This document shows, piece by piece, positions 1,045-59,679 of a DNA stretch of 64,000 nucleotides. The stretch lies in NCBI GenBank assembly GCA_014859085.1, contig JACUUY010000001.1, positions 2,896 through 66,895 on the forward strand. The letters run 5' to 3'. The position numbers were made by a program, and so were the translations under genes. Source of the DNA: a candidate division WOR-3 bacterium. GTDB lineage: Bacteria > Hydrothermota > Tepidihabitantia > SM23-42. Within the stretch, counting starts at the first letter, position 1, and every line of letters begins with the position of its first letter. The notes beneath the pieces were generated by a model. The model was not told where the DNA came from and ran no database searches. It worked only from the letters and a program-made list of their open reading frames with translations.

Positions 1045-2876
1045 TTGAGCACCGGAGACACTTTCTTGACCGCGCTGAACTTGGACGGACAGACTGAAAT
1101 GCAGATACCGCACTTCGTGCATTTCTGCTGGTCGATAGTGTGCACCTTTTTCGCTTCACCGGAAATGGCCGCGCTCGGGCAGTTCTTGGCGCAGACCGTG
1201 CAGCCGCCGCACAGTCCGGCGTCGATCGTGTAGGAGATCAGTTCTTTGCAGACGAGAGCCGGGCAGCGTTTCTCTTTGATATGGGCCTCGTATTCGTCGC
1301 GAAAGTACTTGATCGTCGTGAGGACCGGGTTGGCCGCGGTCTGGCCGAGGCCGCACAGGGAAGAGAGTTTCACGTTCTCCGCGATCTGCTCGAGGAACTC
1401 GATGTCGCCCTCCTTGCCCTGGCCCCTGGTGATCCGGTCGAGCACGTAGACCATGTGCTTCGTTCCCATGCGGCAGGGCGGACACTTGCCGCACGATTCC
1501 TCCTGTGTAAAATTGAGAAAATAGCGCGCGACATCTACCATGCAGGTGTCTTCATCCATGACGATCATGCCGCCCGACCCCATCATTGAACCGGCCTGGG
1601 TCAGGCTTTCGTAGTCGATCGGCAGATCGAGCAACGTTCTGGGTATGCAGCCGCCCGACGGTCCTCCAGTCTGCACGGCCTTGAACTCCTTGCCCTTGGG
1701 AATACCGCCGCCAATATCGTATATGATCCGGCGCATGGAGATACCCATCGGCACTTCGACCAGTCCCGTATTGTTGATCTTGCCGACGAGCGAGAAGATC
1801 TTGGTGCCCTTGCTCTTCGCGGTGCCGATCGAGGAGAACCATTGTGCGCCGCGGAGAATGATCATCGGGATATTGGCCCAGGTCTCCACGTTGTTGATAT
1901 TGGTCGGCTTGCCCCACAATCCTTTTTCCGAGGGATAGGGCGGCCTGGGGCGGGGGCGGCCGGCCCGGCCTTCGATCGACGCGATCAAAGCCGTCTCCTC
2001 GCCGCAGACAAAGGCGCCCGCGCCCTGCACGACGTCAGCGTTGAAGTCGAAACCGGTACCCAGGATATCATCGCCCAGCAAGCCGTAGTCCTCGGCTTGC
2101 GCGAGCGCGATCGTCAGCCGCTTGAGGGCAAGGGGATACTCGCTGCGCACGTAGATGAATCCCTGGTGCGCGCCGATCGCCCATGCGCCGATCGCCATGC
2201 CTTCGATCACTGAATGGGGGTCGGCTTCCAGGACGCTGCGGTCCATGAACGCGCCCGGGTCGCCTTCGTCGCCGTTGCAGATGATATATTTTTTTCGACC
2301 GCGTTCCCGGCGGCACAGTTCCCATTTCCGGCCGGTCGGAAAGCCGGCGCCGCCGCGGCCGCGCAATCCAGATATCTTCACCTCCCGGATGATCTGTTCG
2401 GGGGTCATCCGCGTGAGCGCCTTTTCGAGCGCCTGGTAGCCGTCAAAACCTATATACTCTTCGATGTTCTCGGGATCGAGCCGGCCCCGGTTGCGCAGCA
2501 CGATGAGCCGCTGGTGCCGGAAGAAATCGATGTCCATCATGCGCGGGACCGGCGTTTCCCGTGGGGAGGGCGTGTACATCAGCTCCTTCACAGGCCGGCC
2601 CTTGAGCAGGTGCTCTTCGACGAGATGGGGTATGTCGCGCTTCTTGACCTGCTGGTAGAATATGCCGTCGGGCTGCACGATCACGATCGGCCCGCGCTCG
2701 CAAAATCCCTGGCAGCCGGTCGTGATGACCCGTATCTCGTCATTGAGGTGTTTTCGGGCGATCTCTTTTTCTAATTCTTCTTTGATCTCGAAAGAGCGGT
2801 TGGCGACGCAGCCGGTGCCGGCGCAAACCAGCAGGTGAAGGCGGTATTCTTTAGTTCTTAGCCTTCGGCTTCTCAT
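1041..2876 (-). CDS. NuoF/HydB(HndC)-like NAD(P)H-binding flavoprotein subunit with N-terminal thioredoxin-like 2Fe-2S domain and C-terminal 2x[4Fe-4S] ferredoxin domain
   Basis: 611 aa. NuoF core motifs are present (GRGGAGFPTGRKW, NGDEGDPGAFMDR, ESCGKCPPCR). The N-terminus is LLVCAGTGC...GCQGFCERGP and the C-terminus is CGGCTVCAKNCP...CTKCGICISVCP. This architecture is typical of HydB/HndC-like subunits of NAD(P)-linked, often electron-bifurcating, hydrogenase or formate dehydrogenase complexes. Confidence 0.85.
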   Translation of the reverse strand: MRSRRLRTKEYRLHLLVCAGTGCVANRSFEIKEELEKEIARKHLNDEIRVITTGCQGFCERGPIVIVQPDGIFYQQVKKRDIPHLVEEHLLKGRPVKELMYTPSPRETPVPRMMDIDFFRHQRLIVLRNRGRLDPENIEEYIGFDGYQALEKALTRMTPEQIIREVKISGLRGRGGAGFPTGRKWELCRRERGRKKYIICNGDEGDPGAFMDRSVLEADPHSVIEGMAIGAWAIGAHQGFIYVRSEYPLALKRLTIALAQAEDYGLLGDDILGTGFDFNADVVQGAGAFVCGEETALIASIEGRAGRPRPRPPYPSEKGLWGKPTNINNVETWANIPMIILRGAQWFSSIGTAKSKGTKIFSLVGKINNTGLVEVPMGISMRRIIYDIGGGIPKGKEFKAVQTGGPSGGCIPRTLLDLPIDYESLTQAGSMMGSGGMIVMDEDTCMVDVARYFLNFTQEESCGKCPPCRMGTKHMVYVLDRITRGQGKEGDIEFLEQIAENVKLSSLCGLGQTAANPVLTTIKYFRDEYEAHIKEKRCPALVCKELISYTIDAGLCGGCTVCAKNCPSAAISGEAKKVHTIDQQKCTKCGICISVCPSKFSAVKKVSPVLK

Positions 2877-3315
2877 ATCCGGCGAGCAGTCTCTCGACTT
2901 TGTCGGCGGTGGTCTGACCGTGGTACTCTTCGTCGACGACGACGATCGGCGCCAGGGCGCAGGCGCCGAGGCAGTTGACGGTCTTGAGCGTATACTCGTC
3001 GTCGGTGGTCGTCTCGCCGGGTTTGATCTTCAACCGGTCCTCGAGGCGGCTCAGGACCGCGGGCGCGCCGCGCACGTGGCAGGCCGTGCCCATGCAGACC
3101 GTGACCAGATGCTTGCCCCGGGGTTTGAGGCTGAAGGCCGAGTAGAAGGTGGCCAGGCTGTAGAGCCGGCTCAGGGGTATGTGCAGGCGCCGGCTGACAT
3201 GCTCGAGGGCATCCCGGCGCAGGTAAGTCTGAAGTTTCTGAATATCATTGAGGATCTGGATGATCCTCGATCGCTGGTGACCGTATTTCTCAAGGATCCG
3301 GTCGATTTTGTCCAT
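2851..3315 (-). CDS. NuoE/HoxE-like 2Fe-2S thioredoxin-like ferredoxin subunit
   Basis: 154 aa with CMGTACHVRGA...CLGACALAPIVVVD motifs. It is the first gene of a co-directional E-F-G-like operon. Confidence 0.85.
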   Translation of the reverse strand: MDKIDRILEKYGHQRSRIIQILNDIQKLQTYLRRDALEHVSRRLHIPLSRLYSLATFYSAFSLKPRGKHLVTVCMGTACHVRGAPAVLSRLEDRLKIKPGETTTDDEYTLKTVNCLGACALAPIVVVDEEYHGQTTADKVERLLAGYEKPKAKN

Positions 3316-3323: not shown

Positions 3324-3351
3324 ATTATATATATAATGCAGCAAAAATCAA
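3324..3351 (-). promoter_or_regulatory. sigma70-like promoter of the nuoE-like operon (-35 TTGATT, 16-nt spacer, -10 TATAAT, about 8 nt to ATG)
   Basis: Minus strand reads gaacTTGATTtttgctgcattatataTATAATgctgtttaATG. No Shine-Dalgarno sequence. The geometry implies a leaderless or near-leaderless transcript. Confidence 0.5.
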
Positions 3352-3452: not shown

Positions 3453-4778
3453 CTAGTGTACAAGCACGGCTTTTTCGGTGACTGGCGTGCCATCAATATG
3501 TAGTCGGAGGAAATATGTGCCGGCGGGGACACGTCTGTTACTTTGGTCCGTTCCGTCCCATTGTAGTATGTAGTTGCCGGTACTTGCTACATCGCTGAAT
3601 AGTGTTCTGACTACCCTCCCCGTAAGGTCATGGATTTTCAGACAAGCGTTATCGGCTTTCGGTAAGAACACATTGATGTGCAAAGGAGACCGAGAGGGAT
3701 TACCTGAGATTGTCATGCTTGGTCGTGCCGCAACCGTCTGCTCGGAGGATTCTGCAACGGCGAGATTGTCAAGGGACAGGATACAGGTTTCTCCAAAATA
3801 ACTTGCGTAGGGCTGATCGCCACCGAACAGAACAACCTCCTGGCAGGGTGCGCTATAAGCCGCAACGGTCCCCCGCCTGCCTGGGATGATACCGCCTGCA
3901 TAGGATATTTGCTGCCATGCTTGCTGATCAATATCCAGTTTCCAGATGTCGCTGTACAGTACGTAATATCCGGTATAGGCATACCCCAACCCGATGATCA
4001 TATTCTCGTTGGTGTGGTCGTACGCGCAGAAATGTCTACCTCTTGCATTCGGCGGATTTCCGGTGGGAAAGAGCTGCTGCCAGCTCTCAGCTCCCGCGGA
4101 AAGATTGAGTGTCCAGGTATCGTTCATGTGCACGTCATTTCTGCCGCCGAATATGATCATTCGGTGTCCGATGGGGTCGTATACCGCCGAATGTTCGAAT
4201 CGCGGGCACGGTGCCGTGCCTGATGGGAAGAGCTGCGACCAGATAAGAGTGCTGAGGTCCAGGGAGTATGTGGTATTCATACCACCGGCGCCAGCCTCTC
4301 CGCCAAAGACGATTAGCCGATTATTGTATTCATCAACCATAGCCGTGGCTGAGGTGCGGGGAGACGGCGGTGTTCCACTGGTTGAAAGCTGACTCCATGC
4401 TTCAACGCCGAGAGACAAATTCAGAGCCCACACATCATTATACTGAGGCCCGAGTTCTCCGCCGCCACCGAACACTATCATACGGTTTCCTGTATTATCG
4501 TACGCGGCGGCTGCCATGATACGTTCAGCCGGGGCGGTTCCCGAGGGTGAGAGTTTGCTCCAGGTTTCGTCGGTGATGTTGAATGCCCATGTGTCATTGA
4601 AGACCCTGCCATCATACATCCGATAAGAACCGCCGGAAAACAAGATCATTCTGTTGTGTGCCGCGTCGTGGATCATACATGCGTAAGATCTGACTTCGGG
4701 AGCGGTTAGACGTAGTGTGGCTGCTTGCAGGCCGCAGGTTAGAACGGCTGCTATGCTCAGTATTACACGGTTCTTCAT
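3453..4778 (-). CDS. Kelch-repeat beta-propeller protein with signal peptide and T9SS C-terminal sorting domain
   Basis: 441 aa. N-terminal signal peptide MKNRVILSIAAVLTCGLQAATL. Repeated Kelch-like blades (IVFGG..., W..L...G..P..R). C-terminal por-secretion-tail-like segment ...GTYFLRLHIDGTPVTEKAVLVH. Confidence 0.7.
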   Translation of the reverse strand: MKNRVILSIAAVLTCGLQAATLRLTAPEVRSYACMIHDAAHNRMILFSGGSYRMYDGRVFNDTWAFNITDETWSKLSPSGTAPAERIMAAAAYDNTGNRMIVFGGGGELGPQYNDVWALNLSLGVEAWSQLSTSGTPPSPRTSATAMVDEYNNRLIVFGGEAGAGGMNTTYSLDLSTLIWSQLFPSGTAPCPRFEHSAVYDPIGHRMIIFGGRNDVHMNDTWTLNLSAGAESWQQLFPTGNPPNARGRHFCAYDHTNENMIIGLGYAYTGYYVLYSDIWKLDIDQQAWQQISYAGGIIPGRRGTVAAYSAPCQEVVLFGGDQPYASYFGETCILSLDNLAVAESSEQTVAARPSMTISGNPSRSPLHINVFLPKADNACLKIHDLTGRVVRTLFSDVASTGNYILQWDGTDQSNRRVPAGTYFLRLHIDGTPVTEKAVLVH

Positions 4779-4794
4779 ACGCTACCTCCGGAGA

Positions 4795-4822
4795 ATTATA
4801 ACAGAAGCAAAACTGTTGTCAA
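4795..4822 (-). promoter_or_regulatory. sigma70 consensus promoter of the Kelch gene (TTGACA, 16 nt, TATAAT), followed by a 16-nt leader with GGAGG
   Basis: Minus strand reads TTGACAacagttttgcttctgtTATAATtctccGGAGGtagcgtATG. Confidence 0.55.
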
Positions 4823-4899: not shown

Positions 4900-7389
4900 C
4901 TACGTATCATTGCTATTATGCCGTGACCTACGCATCATGAACGGCAAACGGCCAAACCTGATGCGCGATCGCAGCAGTAAAATACCTAATGCAAGAATCA
5001 AGGCAAATATTGATATGACACTTCCTGTCTCAAAACCTTTTGACAAGTACTTGAATACTAGTTGGTGCGTTCCAGCCGGCACATAGACCGCCCGGAATGT
5101 GTGGTTGGCAATGTATATCTTGCTCGGCTCGCCATCCACAAATACCTGCCAGTCCGGGTGCCAGTTGTCCGCCAGCACGACAAAGCCGTGGTGCTGGGAC
5201 TCGGTCTCGCAGACGATCCGGTTGGGCGCGTATTCCTGCAGCCGTACGGTGCCGGGGATGAGGTCGTCGCCGGTTTCCACATGCGGCACGCCCGGGTCCT
5301 CTTCGAGCAGCACGGTGCGCCAGGGGTCGTACGTTGCAGATTTCATTATCTCCAGTGCCTCGGATTCAGCGTGAACCTGGTATTCGTGAACCATGAGGAC
5401 CCTGGGTATGGCGTGCGGGTTTTCGTACACGGTGTACCGGCGGCCCCGGAATGCAGGCTGGAACCGCAGGAGGTAAGTCCTGATCTGCTCGATGAGCGCC
5501 CGCGTCGGCGCGTCATACGGTGAAATGTCGTCGGGCAGGGTCGGCGCGATCAGATACTTCGCGTTGAGCATGTCGAGAAACCCGGGATGCTCGACGAGGT
5601 TAGAGGGCGTGAACATGACGCTCTGTCCGGCACCGATGAATTCCTGGTAGCGGCGGAGCGGGTTCGGGATATAACCGCCGGCGCTCTGGATGTCGTGATA
5701 GAGCAGGTATAGGTCTGAAGCATGCTCATACCACGGCGTGGGAAAGACCCGGAAGACACCTGGTTTTTCTTTAATGAAACGCGTGACATCGTCGGCCGCA
5801 TAGTACTTTTCCGGCGGTGGCGCCTCGGGCAGGAATCGGGAAACGATCGTCAGCTGGTCGGTCAATGCAAGCGCGATCAACAGCAGGGAGATAACCCACG
5901 CCTTTATCTTGCGCCGCGTCGAAAGATAGAGGAGGCCAAGGCAGATCGTCGCGAACAGGGCCGTGCGCCACGCGCCACCCACGAGACTAGAGTAGTTATT
6001 CTTCAAGTTGGCGAGTTTTGCCTGGACCGCCTGGGTTCCCCAGAGCGGCAACAGCCGGTCTTTCATTCCTTCCTGCATCGACCGGGCGAGCGAATCGCCA
6101 CCGAGCGAAAAAATGAGCGCGACCAGGATCAGGACGGCGATCAGAACGGAGCCGATGACGAACAGCTTTTTCGGCCGTGTTTCGGTCTTCTTCATGAAGA
6201 TGTGCTCAAAGCCAATGGCGCCGAGCACGACCATGCTGAAACTGGCGAGGTAGAATATCAAAGCCGGCGCCCGGAATAGCTTGAAACCGGGGATGAGCGC
6301 GTAGGGGATCCGGAAGAAGGGGGTGGCGCCGCCGATTGCGACGAGCGTGGCCGCGGCCGCCGCGAAAGCGAAGAACTTCACGTAGCGCTTGTGCCAGCAC
6401 AATGCAACGGCGAAAGCAGCGAAGAGTACGGCAATGACGCCGAAGTATTCGACGTGTATTTTGAAGCTGTTCATGCCCCAGTATTTGTCGAGAATTCCCG
6501 AGAACGTGGGGATAATCAGGTCCACGAGTTCCAGGGGCGGCATTGCCCATGACGTGGCATATTCATAACCCCGTTCGACGCCGCGCGCCGCTTCGCCCAG
6601 GCCAGCCAGTACCGGCAGCCAGATGGCGGCCATGAGCAGGCAGATCAAGGCGACCGAGACCAGTCCGTAGCCGATGATTTGCGCGATATCCTTGCCGGAA
6701 TGTTCCTTGCGAGAAACGATGAGGTAATATATGACATAAACAAGGATCAGCAGCAGTCCGTAATAGGTTATCTGGAAGTGCCCCTCGTAAAAGGCGAACG
6801 CAGTCGTCAGGGCGGTGAGTACGAAATACACGATCCTTTTCGATGTTATTGCTTTGTGGATGAAGTAGAGCATGAGCGGAAATAGAGCAATGCTCGCGGC
6901 CCTTCCGGCATGGCCCGCGGCCGGCGTCGTTGACAGATTGCCAATGAATTGATAGATCACCGCGCCGAGCGCCGCGGTATGGGGTGAGAGACCGATCGCC
7001 TTCAGGTACAGATACGTGCCGAGACCCGCAAGAAAGAAGAAGATAATGAAAGAGAGGGCAAGCACGACCTGAGGCGGTATGATCTCCCGCAGTTGCGCGA
7101 GCGGTGCCAGGTGGCCGCCCACGGGCGAGCCGAGCACGGGTATGCCGCCGAATACATGCGGATACCACAGCGGCATCGCTTCCTGTTCGCTTATCCATTT
7201 TTCGAAAGGGTAACCGCCGATGAGATAGTCAGAGCCTGCGATCATGCGGTCCGCGCTGAGAAATGACGAGAAGTATATGAGGGGCAACACAAGAAGCAGG
7301 GCAATGACGAACTTCTCCCAATGAATTTCCAGGAAAAACGGCTTGGTTTCAGGCTGGGGGATTTTCTTCTGTTTTGATTTCTTGCTCAT
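4900..7389 (-). CDS. YfhO-family-like polytopic membrane protein (GT-C-like putative glycosyltransferase or glycan polymerase)
   Basis: 829 aa. About 14 predicted TM helices in the N-terminal two thirds, a large extracytoplasmic domain and a C-terminal TM helix. The size and topology match the YfhO family. The call is by architecture, not by a recognised motif. Confidence 0.45.
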   Translation of the reverse strand: MSKKSKQKKIPQPETKPFFLEIHWEKFVIALLLVLPLIYFSSFLSADRMIAGSDYLIGGYPFEKWISEQEAMPLWYPHVFGGIPVLGSPVGGHLAPLAQLREIIPPQVVLALSFIIFFFLAGLGTYLYLKAIGLSPHTAALGAVIYQFIGNLSTTPAAGHAGRAASIALFPLMLYFIHKAITSKRIVYFVLTALTTAFAFYEGHFQITYYGLLLILVYVIYYLIVSRKEHSGKDIAQIIGYGLVSVALICLLMAAIWLPVLAGLGEAARGVERGYEYATSWAMPPLELVDLIIPTFSGILDKYWGMNSFKIHVEYFGVIAVLFAAFAVALCWHKRYVKFFAFAAAAATLVAIGGATPFFRIPYALIPGFKLFRAPALIFYLASFSMVVLGAIGFEHIFMKKTETRPKKLFVIGSVLIAVLILVALIFSLGGDSLARSMQEGMKDRLLPLWGTQAVQAKLANLKNNYSSLVGGAWRTALFATICLGLLYLSTRRKIKAWVISLLLIALALTDQLTIVSRFLPEAPPPEKYYAADDVTRFIKEKPGVFRVFPTPWYEHASDLYLLYHDIQSAGGYIPNPLRRYQEFIGAGQSVMFTPSNLVEHPGFLDMLNAKYLIAPTLPDDISPYDAPTRALIEQIRTYLLRFQPAFRGRRYTVYENPHAIPRVLMVHEYQVHAESEALEIMKSATYDPWRTVLLEEDPGVPHVETGDDLIPGTVRLQEYAPNRIVCETESQHHGFVVLADNWHPDWQVFVDGEPSKIYIANHTFRAVYVPAGTHQLVFKYLSKGFETGSVISIFALILALGILLLRSRIRFGRLPFMMRRSRHNSNDT

Positions 7390-7395: not shown

Positions 7396-7423
7396 AGTAT
7401 AGAAAGAATCAGTGCATAGTCAA
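7396..7423 (-). promoter_or_regulatory. sigma70 promoter (TTGACT, 16 nt, TATACT) 6 nt upstream of the YfhO-like ATG; leaderless geometry
   Basis: Minus strand reads cTTGACTatgcactgattctttcTATACTtgatagATG. It lies inside the 3' end of the upstream UPF0104 gene. Confidence 0.5.
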
Positions 7424-8334
7424 GGATTTACCCCTGCTTTCGCGCGGCGCTGGATGATCAGTCCAATGAAGAACATGAGTACCTCGAAGATCGTGATCCA
7501 GATGCGCGCAATGAGACTTACGGCAATGGCTAACGGTGTTGGAAGCACACCTGACAGAAGGAGCGTCATCATGCCTTCCCGCACGCCCAGCCCGCCTGGG
7601 GCGAACAGAGCGAGCGAGCCGCCTATCCATGCCAGAGAGTAGGCTGATGCAATGTGGAATACGTTTCCCGCAGGAACCGGGTAGATGGCTCTGATCAGCA
7701 AAAAGAAACCGGCTATCTGCGCGAGCCAAAGGCCGAAGAAATACAGAGAAATACGGAAGATTTGGTTATAACTTAGTGTGAAATGGATCTCGGGTTTCTT
7801 CAGGCGGCGGAGCATGAAGTTCGAAACAGATCTTAGGCTCGCCGGGTGGAGCATGATGGTCGCCGCCGTGGTGAGTATTACAGAGAGGGTAATCCAGGCG
7901 ATGCTGTAACCACCTGCAAGGAGTGTGCTCAGGGAGAAAATAATGCCGCCCGTGATATAGACTAGACAGGTTTCGAGCACCATGCTCAGCGTCAGTTTCT
8001 TGCCGTCAAGGCGTTCCTGCTTACCCACGTAGACACGGCCAACTATATACCACACCTTGCCTGGAAGATACTTGCCGATCTGGGTCGTGGCGATCATCCA
8101 GACCGCTTGGGAGAATAATATGGGTGAATGCAGATCGTGCATGATCGCCTGCCAACTTCTGCTGTAGATCGCGAAATATAGCGCAAGAGCACCGAAGGAT
8201 AAAGCAAGAAAAAAGACATTGAAATGAAGGTCGATAAAGGGTATCTTCGACCAATTGAGGACCAGACTCCTTATCAGGAAAAAGAACACGGCGGTAATTA
8301 TGGCTATGGTGGCAAGTCTCTTAATTATCTGCAA
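7420..8334 (-). CDS. UPF0104 / lysylphosphatidylglycerol-synthase-TM-like (flippase-like) membrane protein
   Basis: 304 aa with about 8 TM helices. The N-terminus MQIIKRLATIAIITAVFFFLIRSLVLNWSKI is typical of the flippase-like UPF0104 family that accompanies glycosyltransferases. TTG start. Confidence 0.5.
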   Translation of the reverse strand: MQIIKRLATIAIITAVFFFLIRSLVLNWSKIPFIDLHFNVFFLALSFGALALYFAIYSRSWQAIMHDLHSPILFSQAVWMIATTQIGKYLPGKVWYIVGRVYVGKQERLDGKKLTLSMVLETCLVYITGGIIFSLSTLLAGGYSIAWITLSVILTTAATIMLHPASLRSVSNFMLRRLKKPEIHFTLSYNQIFRISLYFFGLWLAQIAGFFLLIRAIYPVPAGNVFHIASAYSLAWIGGSLALFAPGGLGVREGMMTLLLSGVLPTPLAIAVSLIARIWITIFEVLMFFIGLIIQRRAKAGVNP

Positions 8335-8340
8335 TATAGC

Positions 8341-8368
8341 AGTATACGTTGCCGCGCCGTATTGTCAA
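8341..8368 (-). promoter_or_regulatory. sigma70 promoter (TTGACA, 16 nt, TATACT) 6 nt upstream of the TTG start of the UPF0104 gene; leaderless geometry
   Basis: Minus strand reads cATTGACAatacggcgcggcaacgTATACTgctataTTG. Confidence 0.5.
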
Positions 8369-8383
8369 TGAAAATGTAGAACG

Positions 8384-8411
8384 TTGACACGTCCACCGAT
8401 TAATCTATAAT
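8384..8411 (+). promoter_or_regulatory. sigma70 consensus promoter (TTGACA, 16 nt, TATAAT) 6 nt upstream of the methyltransferase ATG; leaderless geometry, divergent from the 8341..8368 promoter
   Basis: Plus strand reads cgTTGACAcgtccaccgattaatcTATAATcgtggcATG. Confidence 0.55.
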
Positions 8412-8417
8412 CGTGGC

Positions 8418-9236
8418 ATGGAAAATCCGATAGCCCCGGTCTGGGGTGAATTGAAAGATAGAGTATCATCGGCTGACCTTGATTTCCTGAAGAAGTGTTT
8501 TCGTGCCTACTCCTCGAAGGCGCATATCCACAATGTCTTGCATGATTTGGATATCATGAAAGAGATCTCGCCGCCACCGCAGAGAGTACTGGATTTTGGC
8601 TGCGGCATAGGACTGCAGTCGTTTCTTCTATCTCAGAATGGGTATGAGGTCTATGGTTTGGAGACCGTCGAGGATAAATCCCTGGACGGTTTCTTCAAGG
8701 GTAAGGGCGAAGCGCATATATCAAGTCGCGAGGCGAGCATGCACAACGTGTGGAACATAATCAAGGCAAAGGTCGACGTGGATTTCCGTTTCTATGACGG
8801 GCTGAAGCAGCCGTTTGCGGATGGTTATTTTGACATCGTATTCTCGTATGCTGTTCTTGAGCACATTCCCGCCGGCGATATCCCAGCGATCATAAGTGAA
8901 ATACACAGGACGCTGAAGCCCGGCGGCATATTCTATATTTTTCAATTACCGCGTTGTGCCTCATACACGGAATTCATTGCACGCAAACTGGGGATGGAAA
9001 GTCATCCCTACCTGTGGGATATGAGAAGCATGGAGGTGCTGCTCAATGAGGGCGGCTTCAGCACGGTATATTCTGAGCGGGTCGATATGCTACTAAACCA
9101 CCCCTACAGGATCGTGAATCCATTATTCCCAATTCTGAGACCGCTGAACAATTTTCTGGCACATACACCCCTGTCTTATTTCGCACACCATCTTACAGTG
9201 GTCGCCAGGAAGACGGACATTGACTCCCGCAGGTAA
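8418..9236 (+). CDS. class I SAM-dependent methyltransferase
   Basis: 272 aa. Motif I VLDFGCGIGLQSFLL. Post-I acidic residue. Motif LKPGGIFYIF. Confidence 0.7.
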   Translation: MENPIAPVWGELKDRVSSADLDFLKKCFRAYSSKAHIHNVLHDLDIMKEISPPPQRVLDFGCGIGLQSFLLSQNGYEVYGLETVEDKSLDGFFKGKGEAHISSREASMHNVWNIIKAKVDVDFRFYDGLKQPFADGYFDIVFSYAVLEHIPAGDIPAIISEIHRTLKPGGIFYIFQLPRCASYTEFIARKLGMESHPYLWDMRSMEVLLNEGGFSTVYSERVDMLLNHPYRIVNPLFPILRPLNNFLAHTPLSYFAHHLTVVARKTDIDSRR

Positions 9237-9248: not shown

Positions 9249-9276
9249 TTGACATATACAATTCCGCTGCTATACT
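9249..9276 (+). promoter_or_regulatory. sigma70 promoter (TTGACA, 16 nt, TATACT) with an approximately 180-nt leader before the FG-GAP gene
   Basis: Plus strand reads cacTTGACAtatacaattccgctgcTATACTttcgg. The downstream gene has an AGGAGG Shine-Dalgarno sequence 4 nt before its ATG at 9461. Confidence 0.5.
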
Positions 9277-9460
9277 TTCGGTAAGAAGAGTCAGGAACGA
9301 TAGTACCGGATATTGTTTGGTGAGATATGAGTCTGCATTGCGGCTGTGAATCATACCGTGCTGTATTCACCAGCGAGTGGAGAATAAGGGCCCCGGTGGC
9401 GAGAATGTTCACATATTTTTCACACGCAAAGTGTATAATTTGAAAAAAACAGGAGGAAGT

Positions 9461-11578
9461 ATGGTAAGTAGATACATAATCGTAGCACTATTGCATGCTG
9501 CGCTGTGTTTCAGCCAGAATGCGTGGGTTGAGACAAGTCAGAGTGATTTCCGGGACGGCATTTACGAGAGAAACATCTACGCTTCGCACCGTGGTGGCGG
9601 TGCGGTCGAATTTGCCCCCAGATTCGATCTGAACAATGACGGCTATTTTGACCTGTTTGCTGCCGACCGGTTCGGTCCATATGTCCGCATTTATTGGGGT
9701 AGTACCAGCGGTTATTCGGCGGGTAATGTCACCCTTTACCCGAGCAGCGGTGGTGCGAACTGCGATGCGGCAGACCTTGACGGCGATGGATACGCCGAAT
9801 TCATCGTTTCCCACTACTTTGAGAAGACTTCAATCTATTGGGGCAGTGCCAGTGGCCCTGATCCACAGAATCACCTGGACCTACCGATGATCGCCTGGAA
9901 TCGGCAGGGAGTGTTTGTTGCTGACCTCAACAAGGACGGTTATCTTGATATCGCGACAACACAAGAGATCGTATCAGGCAAAGCTGCCATCTTCTGGGGT
10001 AGTGCCAGCGGATACAGCATAGGCAACCGTACGGATCTACCCTGCAACTTCGGAATTCACAATATTGAGGTCGCTGATTTTGACCAGAACAACTGGCTGG
10101 ACATTCTGTTCGTCGTGTACGCGGGGGATTATTATGGTTATATTCTCATATATTGGGGCAACGACACGGGATTTCAGGCATCTAATGTAACCGTTCTTCC
10201 AGGCCCATCAGGGAACACCGGCGTTTCGGTCGCCGATCTAAACGCCGATGGCTACATTGATATCGTAAGCACGGGCTGGTACGATACGCAGTCTTACTTA
10301 TATTGGGGCAGCGCAGGGGGTTATTCATCGTCCAGCGTGCAGATTCTTGACCCGGGATATTGCTACGGTGGCAGTTCAGTTGCTGACTTCAACAATGACA
10401 CATATCTTGATATCCTCTACCATCGCGGAGGATATGGGACCGCTTGTCAGATTATCTTCTGGGGCAGCGCGTCAGGGTATGCGAACAGCAACAGCAGCGA
10501 TATTGGGATTCCACTTGAAACCACAGGCGGATTGATAGCCGACCTCGATTACGATGGGGACCTCGATATCTTCGTCAACACACGAACCCCTGAATACCAT
10601 AGTTTTGTCCTTTCCGCTCCTTCGTTTACGCCAGTTGCATCATTACCGGTGATCGAGGACCACCACGCTATGTTCCGCGAAATAGGCAACGTATACAACC
10701 GCGAATACCATGAGGATTACGGTTCCTCGGTCTTCGATGCCGGTGCCGCAGCGAACTGGGGTGTGCTCGAATGGGAGGCAACGACGCCGACCGGATCCTC
10801 GGTCCTCTGCTGGGTGCGCAGCGGTAACGCGCCTCTGCCGGACAGTTCGTGGTCGGACTGGCAGCCGATGGCCAACGGCGGTGCCATCCCGGATGTACTG
10901 AACGCACGCTTCCTGCAGTACCGGGCGCGCCTTAGCTACACCAATCCCTGTTACCTGCCATCACTCAATGAGGTGAGTGTCACCTATGAAAGCGCCATCA
11001 GTCTGATCGCGTCGCTGAGGATAACGCCGGAAACGATCAACCTGCAGAGTCATGGTAAATTCACGGCATTCATAACCCTGCCGGCTGGCTACGATCATCG
11101 CAGTATCGACGTCTCGACTGTGTGCTGCCATGGAGCAAATGCCTCATCGGGGCACGCCACGCCGAATTTCTATATCGCGAAATTCAGTGTTCAGGACCTT
11201 GTGGGCGTAATACCCGGCCCGGCGGTCGAATTCGTTGTGACCGGACAGCTGTTCAACGGCACTGATTTTATCGGTTACGACACGGTGCGCGTGATCGGCG
11301 TCCCGTCCGCCGATGTCGCGTGCCGTCCCAATCCTTTCAAGACGAAAACAACGATTTCGGTCGTGCGCGCCGAAGGCGAGAAGGTGCGGATTAAGATCTA
11401 TGATGTCAGTGGAAAACTGGTGCGGACTTTCGATCAGACGCAGTGCCGGGACGGCACACAATCAGTGGAATGGGATCGAACCGATAACAGCGGCCGCAGG
11501 GTCGCGGCCGGCATATACCTGTATCACGTTGAGGGGATCGGTTCGGTCTCCAGGCAGAAGATCATCGTGCTGGATTGA
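9461..11578 (+). CDS. FG-GAP/VCBS-repeat (integrin-alpha-like beta-propeller) protein with signal peptide and T9SS C-terminal sorting domain
   Basis: The start is placed at the internal ATG preceded by AGGAGG, not at the track start 9377. Signal peptide MVSRYIIVALLHAALCFSQNA. Seven D-x-[DN]-x-D-G-[YW]-x-D-[IL] + IYWGS repeats. C-terminal Ig-like por-secretion tail KIYDVSGKLVRTF...AAGIYLYHVEG. Confidence 0.7.
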   Translation: MVSRYIIVALLHAALCFSQNAWVETSQSDFRDGIYERNIYASHRGGGAVEFAPRFDLNNDGYFDLFAADRFGPYVRIYWGSTSGYSAGNVTLYPSSGGANCDAADLDGDGYAEFIVSHYFEKTSIYWGSASGPDPQNHLDLPMIAWNRQGVFVADLNKDGYLDIATTQEIVSGKAAIFWGSASGYSIGNRTDLPCNFGIHNIEVADFDQNNWLDILFVVYAGDYYGYILIYWGNDTGFQASNVTVLPGPSGNTGVSVADLNADGYIDIVSTGWYDTQSYLYWGSAGGYSSSSVQILDPGYCYGGSSVADFNNDTYLDILYHRGGYGTACQIIFWGSASGYANSNSSDIGIPLETTGGLIADLDYDGDLDIFVNTRTPEYHSFVLSAPSFTPVASLPVIEDHHAMFREIGNVYNREYHEDYGSSVFDAGAAANWGVLEWEATTPTGSSVLCWVRSGNAPLPDSSWSDWQPMANGGAIPDVLNARFLQYRARLSYTNPCYLPSLNEVSVTYESAISLIASLRITPETINLQSHGKFTAFITLPAGYDHRSIDVSTVCCHGANASSGHATPNFYIAKFSVQDLVGVIPGPAVEFVVTGQLFNGTDFIGYDTVRVIGVPSADVACRPNPFKTKTTISVVRAEGEKVRIKIYDVSGKLVRTFDQTQCRDGTQSVEWDRTDNSGRRVAAGIYLYHVEGIGSVSRQKIIVLD

Positions 11579-11622: not shown

Positions 11623-12105
11623 TCAGTCAATGACGCCGTACTCTATTCCGGCCTCTTTCAGCATGCCGATCGCCAGTTCGTCCGGGTATTCTTTCTTGTA
11701 GACGATCTTCTCAATTTTGGCGTTGATCAGCATCTTGGTGCAGATGAAGCAGGGTTGGTGCGTCGTGTAGATCGTGGCGCCGCTCACGCTGACGCCGAAG
11801 GTCGCGGCCTGGATGAGCGCGTTCTGCTCGGCGTGGACGCCGCGGCACAGTTCATGGCGTTCGCCCGAAGCGATCCCCATTTTACCGCGCAGGCATCCGA
11901 CATCCTCGCAGTGCGGCACGCCGCCGGGCGCGCCATTGTAGCCCGTGGCCAGGATCCGCCGGTTCTTCACGATCACGGCACCGACCTGGCGCCGGAGGCA
12001 GGTCGACCGCTCGGCCACGAGTTCGGCGATCGACATGAAATACTGGTCCCAGGGTTTTCTTCCGGTCTTTGGTTTTCTGGTTCGGGTTTTGTCCTGACGC
12101 TTCAC
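11623..12105 (-). CDS. comEB: dCMP deaminase (ComEB / cytidine-deoxycytidylate deaminase family)
   Basis: 160 aa. [10 protein letters not shown] zinc-binding motif plus PCFICTKML. The stop overlaps the gyrA start (operon). Confidence 0.75.
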
Positions 12106-14522
12106 ACGTGCGCCTTGATCGGAGCGATACTGACTACCGAATCCTCTTTGGCCAGGGCGATCACCTTTACGCCTTTTGCCTGGCGGCTCAGCAACCGGAT
12201 CTCGTTGACCGGCGTTCTGATCACCTTACCGCTCCTGGTCATCACGATCAGGTCATCATCGTCGCTCACATTGGCCACGCCGGCCACTTTGCCGGTCTTG
12301 GCGTCGATCGTCATGCCTTTCATGCCCTTGCCGCCGCGTCCCTTTTCGCCGATCGCGTCGAACTTCACCCGCTTGCCAATGCCCCGTTCACTGACGATGA
12401 GCATGTCTTCGTCGGTACGCGCGATGTTGAAACCGACGACTTCATTCCCCTTGCCGAGCCGGATACCCTTGACCCCGGCCGCATTGCGTCCCATTGAACG
12501 GATGAGCTTCTCTTTGAAGCGCAGGGTGAGCCCGTCCCGGGTCGTGAGCAGCACCGAGTCCTTGCCGGTCGTGAGCCGGACCGCGATCAGCCGGTCTTGC
12601 TTTGCCAGTTTGATCGCGATGATACCCTTTTTCCTGGTGTTCTCGAATTCATCGAGCGATGTCTTCTTGACCTTGCCCATCTTCGTCGCCATGAAGATGA
12701 AATCTTTTGATGCGAAGTCCTTGATCGAGAGGCAGGTCGTTATGTGCTCGTTCGCGGCGAGCTGGACGAGATTGGCGATCGACCGGCCCTTGGAAAAGGG
12801 TCCGGATTCAGGTGTCTCGTAGACCTTGGACGCGAATACCTTGCCCTGGTCGGAGAAAAAGAGCAGGGTGTCGGTCGTCTTCGAGATCAGAAGCTGGAAA
12901 GCGACATCCTCGTCGCGGACCTCGTGTATCTTGCGGCCGTGGCCGCCGCGCGCCTGATTCCGGTACGTGGTTATCGGCAGTCTTTTTATGTAACCGCGCC
13001 GGGTCAAACTGATCACCATTTCCTCTTCGCCGATCAGGTCCTCGATCGTGAGTTCCTCGGCCTCGGCGTTGACGATCAAGGTCCGCCTCGGATCACGGTA
13101 CCGTTCGGTAAGCTTCGTGAGTTCTTCCTTTATTACCTGGTAGATCCCCTTTGGTGATTTGAGGACCGACTTCAGCCGGGCGATCTCCTTGATGAGACTC
13201 AGGTATTCATTCTCCAGCGTTTCCTTTTCGAGATTCGTGAGCCGCGCCAGGCGCATGTCCAGGATCGCCTGGGCCTGGATCTCGCTGAGCGAGAAACGCT
13301 TCATCAATTTCTGCCGGGCGACGGGCGTATCCTGTGATTTCTTGATGATCCTGACCACTTCGTCGATATTCTCGATCGCGATCTTGAGGCCTTCGAGGAT
13401 GTGGGCCCTCTTTTCGGCTTCGGCCAGTTCGAACTTTGTGCGGCGCGTGACGACCTCGAACCGGAAATCGAGAAAATGCTGCATGGCTTGACGCAGCGAG
13501 ATCGTCTGCGGGGTATCGGAGACCAGAGCGAGCAATTGTATGCCATACGGGATTTGGAGCGAAGTGTGTTTGTACAGATTGTTCAGCACGACCTGCGCGT
13601 TGGCATCGCGCTTCAGCTCCACGACGATCCTGATGCCGTCCTTGTCCGATTCATCCCGGAGGTCGGATATGTCTTCGATCTTCTTCTGGCGCGCAAGTTC
13701 GGCGATCTTCTCGAGCAGCGAACTTTTGTTCACCTGATACGGGATCTCGGTTATGACGATCGCCTGCTTGCCTGCCTTCAGATCTTCGACCCGGGCCTTG
13801 CCCCGGATGATTATTCGCCCTTTGCCGGTTTGGTATGCCTGTTTTATACCGGCCCGGCCGATGATGATCGCGCCGGTCGGGAAATCCGGGCCCGGAACGA
13901 GTTTGAGCAATGCATCGTCTTTTATCTTGGGATCGTCGATGATGGCGATGAGCGCCTTCACGATCTCGCCGAGGTTGTGGGGCGGAATGTTCGTTGCCAT
14001 GCCGACCGCAATGCCCGAAGCGCCGTTGCAGAGGAGATTCGGCACGTTGGCCGGGAGCACGGTTGGCTCTTTGAGCCGGCCGTCGAAATTGGGCACAAAA
14101 TTAACCGTATCCTTGCCCAGGTCTTTGAGGATCTCCTCGGCGATCGGCGTGAGTTTTGCCTCGGTATACCGGTAGGCGGCCGCGGCGTCGCCGTCGATCG
14201 AGCCGAAATTGCCCTGACCGTCAACGAGGGCATAGCGCATGGAAAAATCCTGCGCCATGCGCACCAGGGCGTCATAGATCGCCATGTCACCGTGGGGGTG
14301 GTATTTGCCGAGCACATCGCCGACGACCGTGGCCGATTTCTTGTACGGACGGCTGGCTTGCAATCCGGACTCGGACATGGCATACAGGATGCGGCGCTGG
14401 ACCGGCTTGAGGCCGTCGCGGGCGTCGGGCAGGGCCCGGCCGACAATGACGCTCATGGCATAGTCAAGATAGGAAGCCTTGATCTCGTCTTCGATATAAA
14501 CGTTGGTTATTCTCTGCTCCAT
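12102..14522 (-). CDS. gyrA: DNA gyrase subunit A
   Basis: 806 aa. N-terminal [28 protein letters not shown] with the catalytic Tyr region, and C-terminal beta-pinwheel repeats. Diagnostic GyrA sequence. Confidence 0.95.
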
Positions 14523-14529
14523 CGTAGTA

Positions 14530-14558
14530 TTATATCCAGAAAAAGGCCCTAAGTCAAT
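14530..14558 (-). promoter_or_regulatory. sigma70 promoter (TTGACT, 17 nt, TATAAT) 6 nt upstream of the gyrA ATG; leaderless geometry
   Basis: Minus strand reads cttaTTGACTtagggcctttttctggaTATAATactacgATG. Confidence 0.55.
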
Positions 14559-16399: not shown

Positions 16400-17680
16400 C
16401 TAATAACCGGCGTCAATGATTCCGGGCGGCAGGTATTTGTACAGGGTCGGCTGGCTTCTTTCACCGATGGCGTTCGTCCAGACCAGGACGTAATCGTTCA
16501 CGCCCCGGATGTCCACGAAGACGAACTGCTGTCCATTAACATACTGCCAGTGTTCGTATGGTTTGGATTCATGCAGTTGCAGCGGCAGAGGGAATTCGAT
16601 CTCGTCTGGTTGACCGTACTTCACGTGTATTCGCCCGCGGTCGGTCTTGCGGCCGGGAGTATCACCGAGCCGGTAATGTTCATCGGCATACTCGAATCGC
16701 TCGGCGATCTCGTTGTAGTTATGGGTACGCCAGAATCTCTCGAGGTAGGCTTTCTTGCCGTCACCGGGCAGTTGCTTGAATTTATTGTAGTCTCTCGGAT
16801 CGAGAAAATATTCGATCTCGTCGTAGAAGGGCATGCCTTCAAAGCTGACCTCACGTTGTTTCGTATCCGCTATCCTGAACCACGTTGCCTTCTCGGCGAT
16901 CGGGTTCGCATGATTGTCCTCGATCGCGACCGCAAGCCGGTATTCACCGGCCGGAATGTTCTGAATATCGATGCCGCAGTCCACCGCTTGCGACGTAAAG
17001 GCCTTCTCTATCTTTCTTGTCACCTTGCGGATGGTCTTGCCTTCGCCATCAGTGACTGTGTACACCGCGGTCAGTGTATCATTGTCCGGCGTGATGTCGT
17101 ATATTTCATAGTAGAAGAACAGATGCCGGAAGCGGCTGTCGAACAGACGGGATGGCCGCGGGATCACCCGCAGGTTGCCCTTTCTCAGGTTGTCGCCTGC
17201 CGTATCGATCGTTATCTCGCTGGCCAGATTGATGTCGCTCAGTGTGTACCGCTCCCTTGTTATCTCGAGCTCGTCTTCGGATATCCCGCGCTTGGCGCCG
17301 GACAGCAATTCGATGCGATACTTGAACCGGCCTTCGGTGGCATAGGTGCCGAACTGAACGAGAAAGGAGAGCTGTTCCTTTGCCGCGTATGAGAACGACG
17401 GGATCGTGAATTGCCGGTAGAGCGTGTCGATCAGCGAATCGGCATGGTCGAGGTCGATGAGCGCGAACGGCATAACGGCGTTCGCGTAGATGATCTTCTC
17501 GGCCGATTGATATTGCAATTCCTGGTAAGGGATCTCGCAGTTGAATTCGATATAATACACTTCCTCGGTCGTCAAAGTGTGTTCCACGGTATCTTCCAGC
17601 TCGATATGTTCCCGGTAGACAACGGGGTCAGCAAAGAATCTTATGTCACCGGCTGATAACAATAGGGCAAGGAGCATCAT
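16400..17680 (-). CDS. GWxTD-domain protein (paralog 1), secreted
   Basis: The start is placed at the internal MMLLALLLSAGD signal-peptide Met, to avoid a 100-bp overlap with the upstream paralog. C-terminal TPGRKTDRGRIHVKYGQPDEI...YEHWQY...FVFVDIRGVNDYVLV matches the GWxTD domain signature. Confidence 0.55.
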   Translation of the reverse strand: MMLLALLLSAGDIRFFADPVVYREHIELEDTVEHTLTTEEVYYIEFNCEIPYQELQYQSAEKIIYANAVMPFALIDLDHADSLIDTLYRQFTIPSFSYAAKEQLSFLVQFGTYATEGRFKYRIELLSGAKRGISEDELEITRERYTLSDINLASEITIDTAGDNLRKGNLRVIPRPSRLFDSRFRHLFFYYEIYDITPDNDTLTAVYTVTDGEGKTIRKVTRKIEKAFTSQAVDCGIDIQNIPAGEYRLAVAIEDNHANPIAEKATWFRIADTKQREVSFEGMPFYDEIEYFLDPRDYNKFKQLPGDGKKAYLERFWRTHNYNEIAERFEYADEHYRLGDTPGRKTDRGRIHVKYGQPDEIEFPLPLQLHESKPYEHWQYVNGQQFVFVDIRGVNDYVLVWTNAIGERSQPTLYKYLPPGIIDAGY

Positions 17681-18729
17681 CTTACCCCCGATCCCGTGGG
17701 GTTGGCAAGCACGTACTGACCGAACCCGTGACGGTCGACGAAGATGAACCGCAGATTGTCCCGGTAGTACAGCCATACTTCATACGGGAAGGAGTCGATT
17801 TCGTAGGGATAGCGCTGGATCTCGTCGGGCGACCCGTGTTTTACAAAGATCCGCGCCCGGTCACTGCGCCAGCCGCGGTCGCCGCCTGAGAAGTTCTTCT
17901 CGGCGTAGGCGATCCGCTCAAAGTACTCGACCTCTTTTTCATTGTATGCCGTGTTCGGCGTCGGATCCAAGTTCTTCCAGAATGCGGTCCACAGCGAATC
18001 GCGGGTCGAAACCTCGGACTGTTTCAGGACCTTCATTTCGGATGGTGTCGCGATGTACTGCAGTTGATCCACTTTCAGCGACCAGGTTTTCTCATCAAGG
18101 TAGAATGGTCGCGTGACTTTGACCGGCACGATGGACTCGTCGATCTTCCTTTGTTCCGCATAGATGAATAATTTCAACTCATAGTCATCGATCGGAAGTC
18201 CGCCGACGTAGAACATGAGGGATTCGGCATGAGTGCCCCGACGGGCCTTCGTTGTACTTCTCAAATCCTCTATCGCCGCCGCTATGCTGTCGATATTGCC
18301 ATGCTGGTTGAGAACGGTGAACCTTAAATACATTGTATCATTCTTGACCGTATAGTGAATGCCGGCCAGGTTCCTCGCCTGGGCGAGCTTCTGGCTTGCC
18401 GTGAATATCTCACCGGCATGCAGGTCAAGAATCCTCAGCACAAAATAGTCGCCGTCTGCCGGGATGTGGAGCTTGACCGAATCCGCGATGCCGGCCGCCT
18501 CTTCGCCTTCGGAAACCTGCCGCCGCCAGTAGTCGCCGGTCAGTTGGCGGTTCGTCTTGTCATACAGCGTGAGTTGGATCTCGTACCGGGCACGGAAATC
18601 ATTCCCGGCGGAGATGTACTGCAATTTTTGCCTCGGTATGTTAATGTACGTCACGAGTTCCTGCAGTGAATCACGATGCACCCGGGTCATGGCCTGGTAC
18701 TCGATCTGGAAGAAGAGGAAAAATATCAT
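17677..18729 (-). CDS. GWxTD-domain protein (paralog 2)
   Basis: 350 aa. C-terminal GGDRGWRSDRARIFVKHGSPDEI...YEVWLY...FIFVDRHGFGQYVLA. It shares N-terminal and C-terminal similarity with 16400..17680 (tandem duplication). AAGGAG Shine-Dalgarno 9 nt before the ATG. Confidence 0.55.
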   Translation of the reverse strand: MIFFLFFQIEYQAMTRVHRDSLQELVTYINIPRQKLQYISAGNDFRARYEIQLTLYDKTNRQLTGDYWRRQVSEGEEAAGIADSVKLHIPADGDYFVLRILDLHAGEIFTASQKLAQARNLAGIHYTVKNDTMYLRFTVLNQHGNIDSIAAAIEDLRSTTKARRGTHAESLMFYVGGLPIDDYELKLFIYAEQRKIDESIVPVKVTRPFYLDEKTWSLKVDQLQYIATPSEMKVLKQSEVSTRDSLWTAFWKNLDPTPNTAYNEKEVEYFERIAYAEKNFSGGDRGWRSDRARIFVKHGSPDEIQRYPYEIDSFPYEVWLYYRDNLRFIFVDRHGFGQYVLANPTGSGVR

Positions 18730-27717: not shown

Positions 27718-27803
27718 GAAGATTATAAGCAAATTTCACGATACGTCAAGATTGCGTGTTCTCGAGAACATTGCATCATGTTCCGCCATGAATATAATAG
27801 GGC

Positions 27804-33479: not shown

Positions 33480-33507
33480 TTGACATCAATGCAAAATTGA
33501 ATAGAAT
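33480..33507 (+). promoter_or_regulatory. sigma70 promoter (TTGACA, 16 nt, TAGAAT) 3-6 nt upstream of the fabG ATGATG; leaderless geometry
   Basis: Plus strand reads cacTTGACAtcaatgcaaaattgaaTAGAATttcATGATGG. Confidence 0.5.
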
Positions 33508-44799: not shown

Positions 44800-44804
44800 G
44801 GTAT

Positions 44805-44833
44805 ATTCTATCAAATTAGTAGGTTATTGTCAA
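44805..44833 (-). promoter_or_regulatory. sigma70 promoter (TTGACA, 17 nt, TAGAAT) 5 nt upstream of the iscR ATG; leaderless geometry
   Basis: Minus strand reads cTTGACAataacctactaatttgaTAGAATataccATG. Confidence 0.5.
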
Positions 44834-44863
44834 GTTCCTTCTGACCCGTGGTGTTCGCAGAAA

Positions 44864-44891
44864 TTGACTTGCTGTCTTGATTACGTATAAT
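44864..44891 (+). promoter_or_regulatory. sigma70 consensus promoter (TTGACT, 16 nt, TATAAT) 14 nt upstream of the ECF sigma ATG, with no Shine-Dalgarno sequence
   Basis: Plus strand reads gaaaTTGACTtgctgtcttgattacgTATAATagaaccgtaactttATG. It is divergent from the iscR promoter. Confidence 0.5.
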
Positions 44892-44905
44892 AGAACCGTA
44901 ACTTT

Positions 44906-52744: not shown

Positions 52745-52833
52745 GACGAAGACGGTGGAGGATTGCTTCAGGATGCACCTGAGCATTGCTTGACAAGTCA
52801 ATTGCGGGTGGTATAATCATCAGGGAGGTACGA

Positions 52834-59342: not shown

Positions 59343-59348
59343 AATGAG

Positions 59349-59377
59349 ATTCTATGCCAAATCCCCGCATTTGTCAA
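59349..59377 (-). promoter_or_regulatory. sigma70 promoter (TTGACA, 17 nt, TAGAAT) 6 nt upstream of the GH13 ATG; leaderless geometry
   Basis: Minus strand reads gTTGACAaatgcggggatttggcaTAGAATctcattATG. Confidence 0.5.
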
Positions 59378-59601
59378 CACTGCCACTACTATTGACCATC
59401 GATACTCGATGCTTGATACTTGATACACTACTGTTGTCATAGCGCATCCGCCGCCATGGACGCGCCCCATCGGTGTATCTCCAGCTCGCCGCGAAAAACA
59501 TGGGCCCGTCTGCATTATTCAGAAAGCCCAATGAATTGGGCGACTACAAGGGCATGATTACAGTGTTGGTTTTGAGATTCGTATTTTGATATTGTTTAGA
59601 A

Positions 59602-59643: not shown

Positions 59644-59671
59644 TTGACATAACCGCGATATTCACTATAAT
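59644..59671 (+). promoter_or_regulatory. perfect consensus sigma70 promoter (TTGACA, 16 nt, TATAAT) 8 nt upstream of the hslU ATG; leaderless geometry
   Basis: Plus strand reads ctcTTGACAtaaccgcgatattcacTATAATcatggtagATG. Confidence 0.6.
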
Positions 59672-59679
59672 CATGGTAG

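Follow-up and report, generated by a model that had tools for sequence, protein, structure and literature searches.

How does a bacterium translate a gene whose promoter ends six nucleotides (nt) before the start codon, with no ribosome-binding site in between? The question is raised by an 83-bp spacer (positions 8335-8417) in a 64,000-nt stretch of DNA from a candidate division WOR-3 bacterium (GenBank assembly GCA_014859085.1, contig JACUUY010000001.1, positions 2,896 to 66,895), the whole of which is referred to as the window. The spacer lies between a methyltransferase gene and a divergent membrane-protein-like gene and carries a promoter on each strand, a point on which direct reading of the sequence and the promoter scan agree. 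Overall, the arrangement is best explained by housekeeping sigma70-type promoters set so that transcription is predicted to begin at the start codon or no more than 1-2 nt from it, which would make the mRNAs leaderless, and we give this explanation a probability of about 0.85.

The divergent promoter pair and its recurrence in the window

The preliminary description of this DNA had reported that both strands of the spacer carry TTGACA and TATA(A/C)T hexamers 16 nt apart, followed by 6 nt and then ATG or TTG, and that no Shine-Dalgarno (SD) sequence is present. Reading and scan bear out the hexamers and the distances, and no GGAGG-like site fits either 6-nt gap. The two -35 hexamers are separated by 15 bp, so that the promoters stand back to back (Table 1). 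The label 'UPF0104' previously given to the divergent gene could not be upheld, as a Pfam search with its product gave nothing even at E<=1. A terminator-like inverted repeat lying over the + strand -35 (hairpin 8379-8394) was considered as a regulatory element and dropped, since it is not conserved in the related locus L001.

In these genes the A or G of the start codon lies 6-7 nt (up to 9) past the -10 hexamer, the distance at which a sigma70-type RNA polymerase normally begins transcription; with that hexamer at -12 to -7, a 6-nt gap sets the A of ATG exactly at +1. The transcripts would thus be leaderless. In the mechanism that we propose, a -10 hexamer at -12 to -7 would be followed by a discriminator of 5-6 nt, the A or G of the start codon would be the first transcribed nucleotide, and the resulting mRNA, lacking a ribosome-binding site, would receive the ribosome directly on its 5'-terminal AUG or GUG with initiator tRNA. 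Two such promoters placed back to back in the 83-bp spacer would drive the methyltransferase gene and its divergent neighbour. The route by which ribosomes load on a 5'-terminal start codon is established in Actinobacteria, Deinococcus and the cI gene of phage lambda.

The same geometry recurs across the window. By script check, 11 of its approximately 55 genes (about a fifth), the focal pair included, show a -35/-10 pair followed by a gap of 5-8 nt, mostly 5-6 nt, to the start codon, which is ATG in eight genes, GTG in two and TTG in one (8334); no SD site was found upstream of any of the 11 starts. For gyrA, hslU, the GH13 gene, the YfhO-like gene, iscR and nuoE the recurrence announced in the preliminary description was reproduced, gaps included. 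Two entries needed adjustment: the gap of 3-6 nt given for fabG resolves into 3 nt to a first ATG and 6 nt to a second (33514), which is probably the true start, and the TATAAT of rlmN does lie close before its GTG, at 5 nt rather than the 7 nt claimed. The gene for a GreA-domain protein is a further site beyond those listed earlier. A Usp-like gene at 61069 (TAGAAT-6-ATG) was dropped from the set, given its poor -35 and a -10 box that is not conserved in L106-L109. Pfam matches support the identity of the methyltransferase, gyrA, the HslU-type AAA protein, GH13, YfhO, Rrf2, the short-chain dehydrogenase/reductase encoded by fabG, RlmN and the NuoE-like protein.

Table 1. Promoters and genes of the window discussed in the text, with the distance in nt from the end of the -10 hexamer to the start codon
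Feature	Position of element or promoter	Strand	Hexamers and spacer	Distance to start	Start codon	Remarks
-35, methyltransferase promoter	8384..8389	+	TTGACA			Direct reading, scan, script check
-10, methyltransferase promoter	8406..8411	+	16-nt spacer, TATAAT	6 (cgtggc)	ATG 8418	
S-adenosylmethionine-dependent methyltransferase gene	8418..9236	+			ATG, predicted +1	Predicted leaderless; Pfam Methyltransf_11
-35, divergent promoter	8363..8368	-	TTGACA			Direct reading, scan, script check
-10, divergent promoter	8341..8346	-	16-nt spacer, TATACT	6 (gctata)	TTG 8334..8332	
304-amino-acid membrane-protein-like gene	7420..8334	-			TTG	Predicted leaderless; N-terminus membrane-protein-like
gyrA (12102-14522)	14529..14557	-	TTGACT-17-TATAAT	6	ATG 14522	Scan and script
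YfhO-like gene (4900-7389)	7396..7423	-	TTGACT-16-TATACT	6	ATG 7389	Scan and script
NuoE-like gene (2851-3315)	3324..3351	-	TTGATT-16-TATAAT	8	ATG 3315	Scan and script
rlmN (27804-28871)	27771..27798	+	TTGCAT-16-TATAAT	5	GTG 27804	Script; Pfam RlmN_N
fabG	33480..33507	+	TTGACA-16-TAGAAT	3; 6	ATG 33511; ATG 33514 (second)	Scan and script
GreA-domain protein gene, 687 amino acids	39108..39135	-	TTGCAT-16-TATAAT	5	GTG 39102	Script
Rrf2/IscR-type regulator gene	44805..44833	-	TTGACA-17-TAGAAT	5	ATG 44799 (not upstream TTG)	Scan and script
GH13 gene	59349..59377	-	TTGACA-17-TAGAAT	6	ATG 59342	Scan and script
hslU	59644..59671	+	TTGACA-16-TATAAT	8	ATG 59680	Scan and script
Kelch protein gene	4795..4822	-	TTGACA-16-TATAAT	16, with GGAGG	ATG 4778	SD-led minimal leader
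DUF302 gene	52790..52817	+	TTGACA-16-TATAAT	16, with GGAGG (catcagGGAGGtacga)	ATG 52834	SD-led minimal leader
Extracytoplasmic-function (ECF) sigma factor gene			TTGACT-16-TATAAT	14	ATG 44906	No SD; divergent from Rrf2/IscR
AAA/cyclase protein gene				23		
NYN protein gene				34		
Aconitase-family gene				86		
FG-GAP protein gene	9249-9276		TTGACA-16-TATACT (11/12)	184	9461	SD-led
Candidate SD-first sites, window	4778-4822; 52790-52836	-; +				
Candidate SD-first sites, relatives	L106:3365; L107:3353; L109:3331; L009:164					

The recurrence clearly exceeds chance. The preliminary description had proposed a comparison with shuffled controls, and this was run on the window: a promoter with at least 10 of 12 matches, followed by 5-8 nt and a start codon, was observed 12 times, against 0.88 +/- 0.91 (maximum 3) in 200 dinucleotide shuffles, and raising the threshold to at least 11 of 12 left seven cases against 0.06. 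When TTGACA-N16-TATAAT-N6-ATG was sought as such, two mismatches being allowed, eight matches were found against 0.01 expected; four of these matches are leaderless-type sites and the remaining four place a mismatch in the ATG. Moreover, when starts were defined as the first start codon of each long open reading frame (ORF), a -10-like hexamer ended 5-8 nt upstream of 10 of 55 starts, against 0.39 expected from internal start-like codons (P ~1e-11) or about 1.4 from the non-coding background rate. Promoter-like sites in general number 62 in the window (three 20-kb scans) against about 36 expected, and the window is very compact, with a non-coding share of 5.4%.

Conservation in related genomes

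The focal pair is kept in four relatives (L001, L081/L082, L083), whose methyltransferases are 63-69% identical and in which both -35 and both -10 hexamers are retained. On the methyltransferase side TTGAC is invariant, with A or T as the sixth base, and so is the TATAA of the -10 hexamer, which in L083 is TATAAT with a 5-nt gap, while the divergent TTGACA and TATACT are invariant throughout the alignment. The methyltransferase N-terminus is conserved from ATG 8418 onward in L001, L081 and L083. The start codon of the membrane-protein-like gene, always 6 nt past TATACT, varies among TTG (window), GTG (L001 and L081) and ATG (L083), which shows that the site of the start is fixed and that the identity of the codon is free to vary.

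The gyrA arrangement is kept in ten of ten relatives (L001-L006, L008-L011). An alignment of ten upstream sequences (the window, L001, L002, L004-L006 and L008-L011), reaching down to 62% protein identity, retains only TTGA, TATAAT and ATG as invariant, the spacer and the 6-nt gap having completely diverged. Just upstream of the gyrA -10 hexamer (14535-14545 in the window, and in relatives) there is also a semi-conserved TTCTGG with a nearly invariant G at two positions, which may be an extended -10-like element or a gyrA-specific regulatory element. Conservation of the promoter was likewise found for the YfhO-like gene in L001, for the GH13 gene in L106, L107 and L109 (gap of 6 nt) and for hslU, with the same geometry, in L106 and L107; outside the window, a gene for a 289-amino-acid protein shows conserved leaderless-type geometry in four relatives (L106-L109). 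The spacer between the GH13 gene and hslU (59343-59679) is 337 bp long in the window and 87 bp in L106, and its extra sequence contains the short direct repeats ttgatacttgatac and aggatttcgtatttaggattt.

The same statistics were obtained in about 135 kb from ten relatives and in L011, and also in four other loci, of which three belong to closed genomes. When each promoter of the window and its close relatives was paired with the nearest ORF start (ORFs of 100 codons or more), 14 of the distances were 6 nt and 9 were 5 nt, and no other bin held more than 3 sites. Near-consensus promoters of the window, L001-L011 and L106-L109 have, in their large majority, a 16-nt spacer between -35 and -10, compared with an optimum of 17 nt in Escherichia coli.

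Other phyla differ in this respect. The leaderless arrangement at gyrA was absent from 66 loci of other phyla, where the gene is SD-led (in many cases) or unmarked, and was found in one other WOR-3 genome (L025) with a 7-nt gap. The density of near-consensus promoters is 2.2 per 10 kb in the window and its clade and 0.53 per 10 kb in 69 loci from other phyla. About half of those in the window and clade lie 5-8 nt from the start of a long ORF, against 4 of 64 elsewhere. As judged from these sequences, the geometry appears to be a property of the lineage and no local accident. The lineage is that of candidate division WOR-3, whose current NCBI phylum name is Caldifarciminota: GyrA is 85% identical to that of candidate division WOR-3 bacterium SM23_42 and 76-79% identical to those of 'Candidatus Stahlbacteria'/WOR-3 genomes, and NCBI lists a 100% identical HslU with the organism name 'candidate division WOR-3 bacterium'. 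The GC content of the clade spans 38-57%.

Start codons and alternative explanations

The leaderless or near-leaderless reading advanced in the preliminary description is supported by the geometry, the absence of SD sites, the N-termini of the products and the conserved distance between -10 hexamer and start. The positions at which transcription would begin and the mode in which ribosomes would load are deduced from what is observed, namely motifs, spacing, enrichment, conservation and the lack of SD sites. Several points weigh against this reading. Its 5' ends are predictions drawn from the position of the -10 hexamer; a 5-nt gap would put +1 at the sixth base past that hexamer, a less favoured start in E. 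coli, and the 8-nt gaps of hslU and nuoE may fit a leader of 1-2 nt as well as none. T is a disfavoured initiating nucleotide, a difficulty for the TTG at 8334. This start is atypical for leaderless translation: it would be a poor initiator by both mycobacterial and E. coli standards, and TTG did not function as a leaderless start in mycobacteria (PMC4633059). Besides, the hslU arrangement is broken by an indel in two relatives, and the geometry is therefore not immutable.

Upstream of hslU two relatives carry small reading frames. In L109 (SM23_42-like; 9975-10003) an ATG 8 nt past the -10 hexamer opens a six-codon ORF (MEEKAG and a stop) whose TGA overlaps the called hslU ATG (ATGA), and in L108 (9980-10003), where the hslU start lies 20 nt from the -10 hexamer, an out-of-frame ATG 7 nt past that hexamer opens 16 codons that overlap the start. 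These may be either leaderless mini-ORFs coupled to hslU or products of indels.

Among the alternatives, the one that survives best accepts the promoters as real and places the start of transcription a few bases away, so that leaders of about 1-5 nt, or starts inside the codon, would be translated by means of some other feature. The gaps do range from 5 to 8 nt, the choice of start site is known to depend on the discriminator sequence, and the ECF sigma factor gene at 44906 probably has a very short SD-less leader, suggesting that such leaders exist in this organism. Nevertheless, the gap distribution peaks sharply at 5-6 nt instead of being spread. Since the literature counts leaders of 1-3 nt as functionally leaderless, this explanation, which we consider very unlikely, would refine the leaderless reading and not supply another mechanism.

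Mis-assigned start codons, with the true starts further downstream and ordinary leaders hidden in supposed N-terminal coding sequence, are slightly less probable still. The proposed start is the first possible ORF start for most of the 11 genes, and for fabG and the Rrf2 gene a start other than that of the longest ORF had to be chosen. HslU is the case that most favours mis-assignment: the predicted protein has 12 N-terminal residues beyond H. influenzae HslU and beyond the first residue aligned to solved HslU structures, with in-frame GTG codons at positions 2 and 6, and its start is the least secure of the set. Against this explanation, none of the 11 genes has an in-frame start with an SD site in the 60 codons downstream. 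Pfam domains, like the N-termini of homologues, begin at or very near the proposed N-termini, position 1 of the NuoE-like profile aligning at residue 4, position 2 of Rrf2 at residue 4 and position 2 of adh_short at residue 7 of FabG, and in GyrA, the methyltransferase and the membrane protein the N-terminal peptides are conserved in relatives from the proposed start. A downstream start, moreover, would not need the distance from the -10 hexamer to the proposed codon to be conserved, as it is.

The least probable explanation, by which the A/T-rich box 5-8 nt upstream would act in the RNA as a non-SD ribosome-binding signal on leadered mRNAs, as in Bacteroidota and the Fibrobacteres-Chlorobi-Bacteroidetes (FCB) group (GeneMarkS-2 group B), agrees with the FlgD_ig and Por_Secre_tail (type IX secretion) sorting domains at the ends of the Kelch (3453-4778) and FG-GAP (9377-11578) proteins and with the assignment of 409 of 455 sequenced FCB genomes, about 90%, to group B (PMC6028130), and is contradicted by the constant pairing of the box with a TTGACA 16-17 nt upstream, which would have no role at the RNA level, and by its absence from operon-internal genes, which have GGAGG there, whereas group B motifs precede internal genes too (PMC6028130). 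Membership of the FCB group B pattern was rejected on these same two features, GGAGG on internal genes and TATAAT boxes tied to TTGACA. Promoters of the Bacteroidota type (-33 TTTG, -7 TAnnTTTG) were rejected as well, as the motif TTTG-N19-TAnnTTTG is not enriched in the window (2 matches versus 1.77 expected).

Shine-Dalgarno-led genes and comparison with known systems

The preliminary description had held that the organism mixes two modes of initiation, naming the Kelch, FG-GAP, acpP, DUF302 and ptsN genes as SD-led. GGAGG was found at all five. Many genes, most of them inside operons, have GGAGG or AGGAG at a distance of 4-9 nt before the start, the aconitase-family gene as well as acpP and ptsN being among the genes so marked. 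The leaderless-type and SD-led modes coexist, with strong GGAGG sites on internal genes and on some first genes. About 60% of the identifiable promoter-gene pairs in the window are of the leaderless type, and by script check seven other near-consensus promoters serve leadered genes. The further claim that the leaderless set is enriched in first genes of operons holds, although it is true by construction. Together the two modes would form a dual system of the GeneMarkS-2 group C kind.

Some promoters of leadered genes lie far from the start. The leader of the FG-GAP gene (9249-9460) contains a second TATAAT at 9425-9430, its orthologues have leaders of 26-66 nt, and no Rfam family, tRNA or long ORF was found within it. 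Scans of the whole window for tRNAs and Rfam families gave no match, and no known RNA element explains start-distant promoters such as that at 9249-9276.

The Rrf2/IscR gene (5-nt gap) and the ECF sigma factor gene form a second back-to-back pair, in a 106-bp spacer (44800-44905). An Hsp20-like gene (21226-21654, - strand) is SD-led in the window, where it overlaps its upstream gene, and in three relatives (L001:3079, L002:3120, L008:3167) a promoter matching the consensus at 12/12 positions lies 5 nt before the ATG or GTG of its orthologue, which indicates that orthologues switch between SD-led and leaderless-type modes. The ORFs 16400-17776 and 17677-18729 (- strand) overlap by 100 nt, and a 94-nt overlap is found in L001 (6886-6979), with full-length protein matches; the overlap at 17677-17776 may reflect one mis-set start or be real.

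A second class of promoters was noted in which TATAAT is followed by 5-6 nt, GGAGG, a further 5-6 nt and the start codon, and the predicted +1 is the first G of the SD sequence; such an mRNA is predicted to begin with its ribosome-binding site. Seven sites of this kind occur in about 245 kb of the clade versus three in 1.2 Mb of other phyla, and the DUF302 promoter and leader are conserved in L106, L107 and L109. Among the distances between the -10 hexamer and the first GGAG, 6 nt forms a small peak, to which DUF302 orthologues contribute most of the counts, and this peak alone is too thin to support the class. A broader proposal, which we advance tentatively and rate at somewhat below even odds, is that the whole WOR-3 (Stahlbacteria-like) lineage sets its near-consensus promoters to the nucleotide, so that most transcripts would begin either with the start codon (AUG, GUG or even UUG) or with the first G of a GGAGG sequence (TATAAT-N5-6-GGAGG-N5-6-ATG). 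If so, a mid-GC bacterium with a compact genome and Bacteroidota-like type IX secretion domains would have almost no 5' untranslated regions, and leaderless starts other than AUG would be better tolerated by its ribosomes than by those of the model organisms examined up to now.

The leaderless mode is known elsewhere and is built into gene finders; for this phylum it is apparently undescribed, a full-text search having found no paper that links leaderless genes to WOR-3, and no new mechanism is revealed. In practical terms, gene starts in WOR-3 and related metagenome-assembled genomes should be called with a dual leaderless/SD model; several orthologues already have public calls of unequal length, such as HslU with 453, 459 or 469 amino acids and the GH13 protein with 560 versus 590. 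The compact, fully consensus back-to-back pair provides a clean template for leaderless expression tests in vitro, and the natural TTG, GTG and ATG variants at one predicted +1 offer a probe of how strict the leaderless AUG requirement is.

In the cI mRNA of phage lambda, made from the sigma70 promoter PRM in E. coli, transcription begins at the A of the AUG, and the mRNA is translated without an SD sequence. The genes described here resemble it in the absence of an SD site and in a promoter whose +1, predicted in this case, falls on the start codon, but cI is one regulated gene of a phage, whose host is inefficient in leaderless translation, whereas the arrangement appears routine here for housekeeping genes such as gyrA, fabG and rlmN. 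Bacteroidota share the type IX secretion sorting domains found in the window and differ in their signals, as the window has E. coli-like hexamers, strong GGAGG sites and no enrichment of Bacteroidetes promoters.

Leaderless genes have been described in Actinobacteria and Deinococcus-Thermus (Cortes 2013; de Groot 2014; Shell 2015, as cited in PMC6028130 and PMC4633059), and in the published cases a Pribnow box stands 6-8 nt before the start codon of the first gene, internal genes being provided with SD sites (PMC6028130). The window agrees with the group C pattern of those phyla in the -10 hexamer ending 5-8 nt before first-in-operon starts that lack an SD, in ATG or GTG at the predicted +1 of ten of the 11 genes, in the SD sites of internal genes and in the proportions involved, approximately 20% of genes and about half of the identifiable transcription units. 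In contrast, those phyla are mostly of high GC content, with a degenerate TAnnnT and a weak or absent -35, and group C genomes with the standard code are reportedly nearly all high-GC (10.1101/2022.07.25.500264), whereas the present clade combines 38-57% GC with near-full TTGACA and TATAAT hexamers and a 16-nt spacer. One gene, moreover, uses TTG, a codon that fails in the leaderless position in mycobacteria (PMC4633059). In Aquificae and Chloroflexi the full Pribnow consensus is likewise found at leaderless distance at moderate GC content (Zheng et al., 2011; PMC3160421). The same survey reported a TAtaaT signal approximately 10-12 bp upstream of starts in mid-GC genomes, detected it in just 1 of 37 Bacteroidetes/Chlorobi genomes, predates the WOR-3 genomes and left -35 elements outside its analysis. 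With the present clade, a mid-GC lineage would join the few bacterial groups known to be rich in leaderless genes, so far mostly high-GC Actinobacteria and Deinococcus-Thermus.

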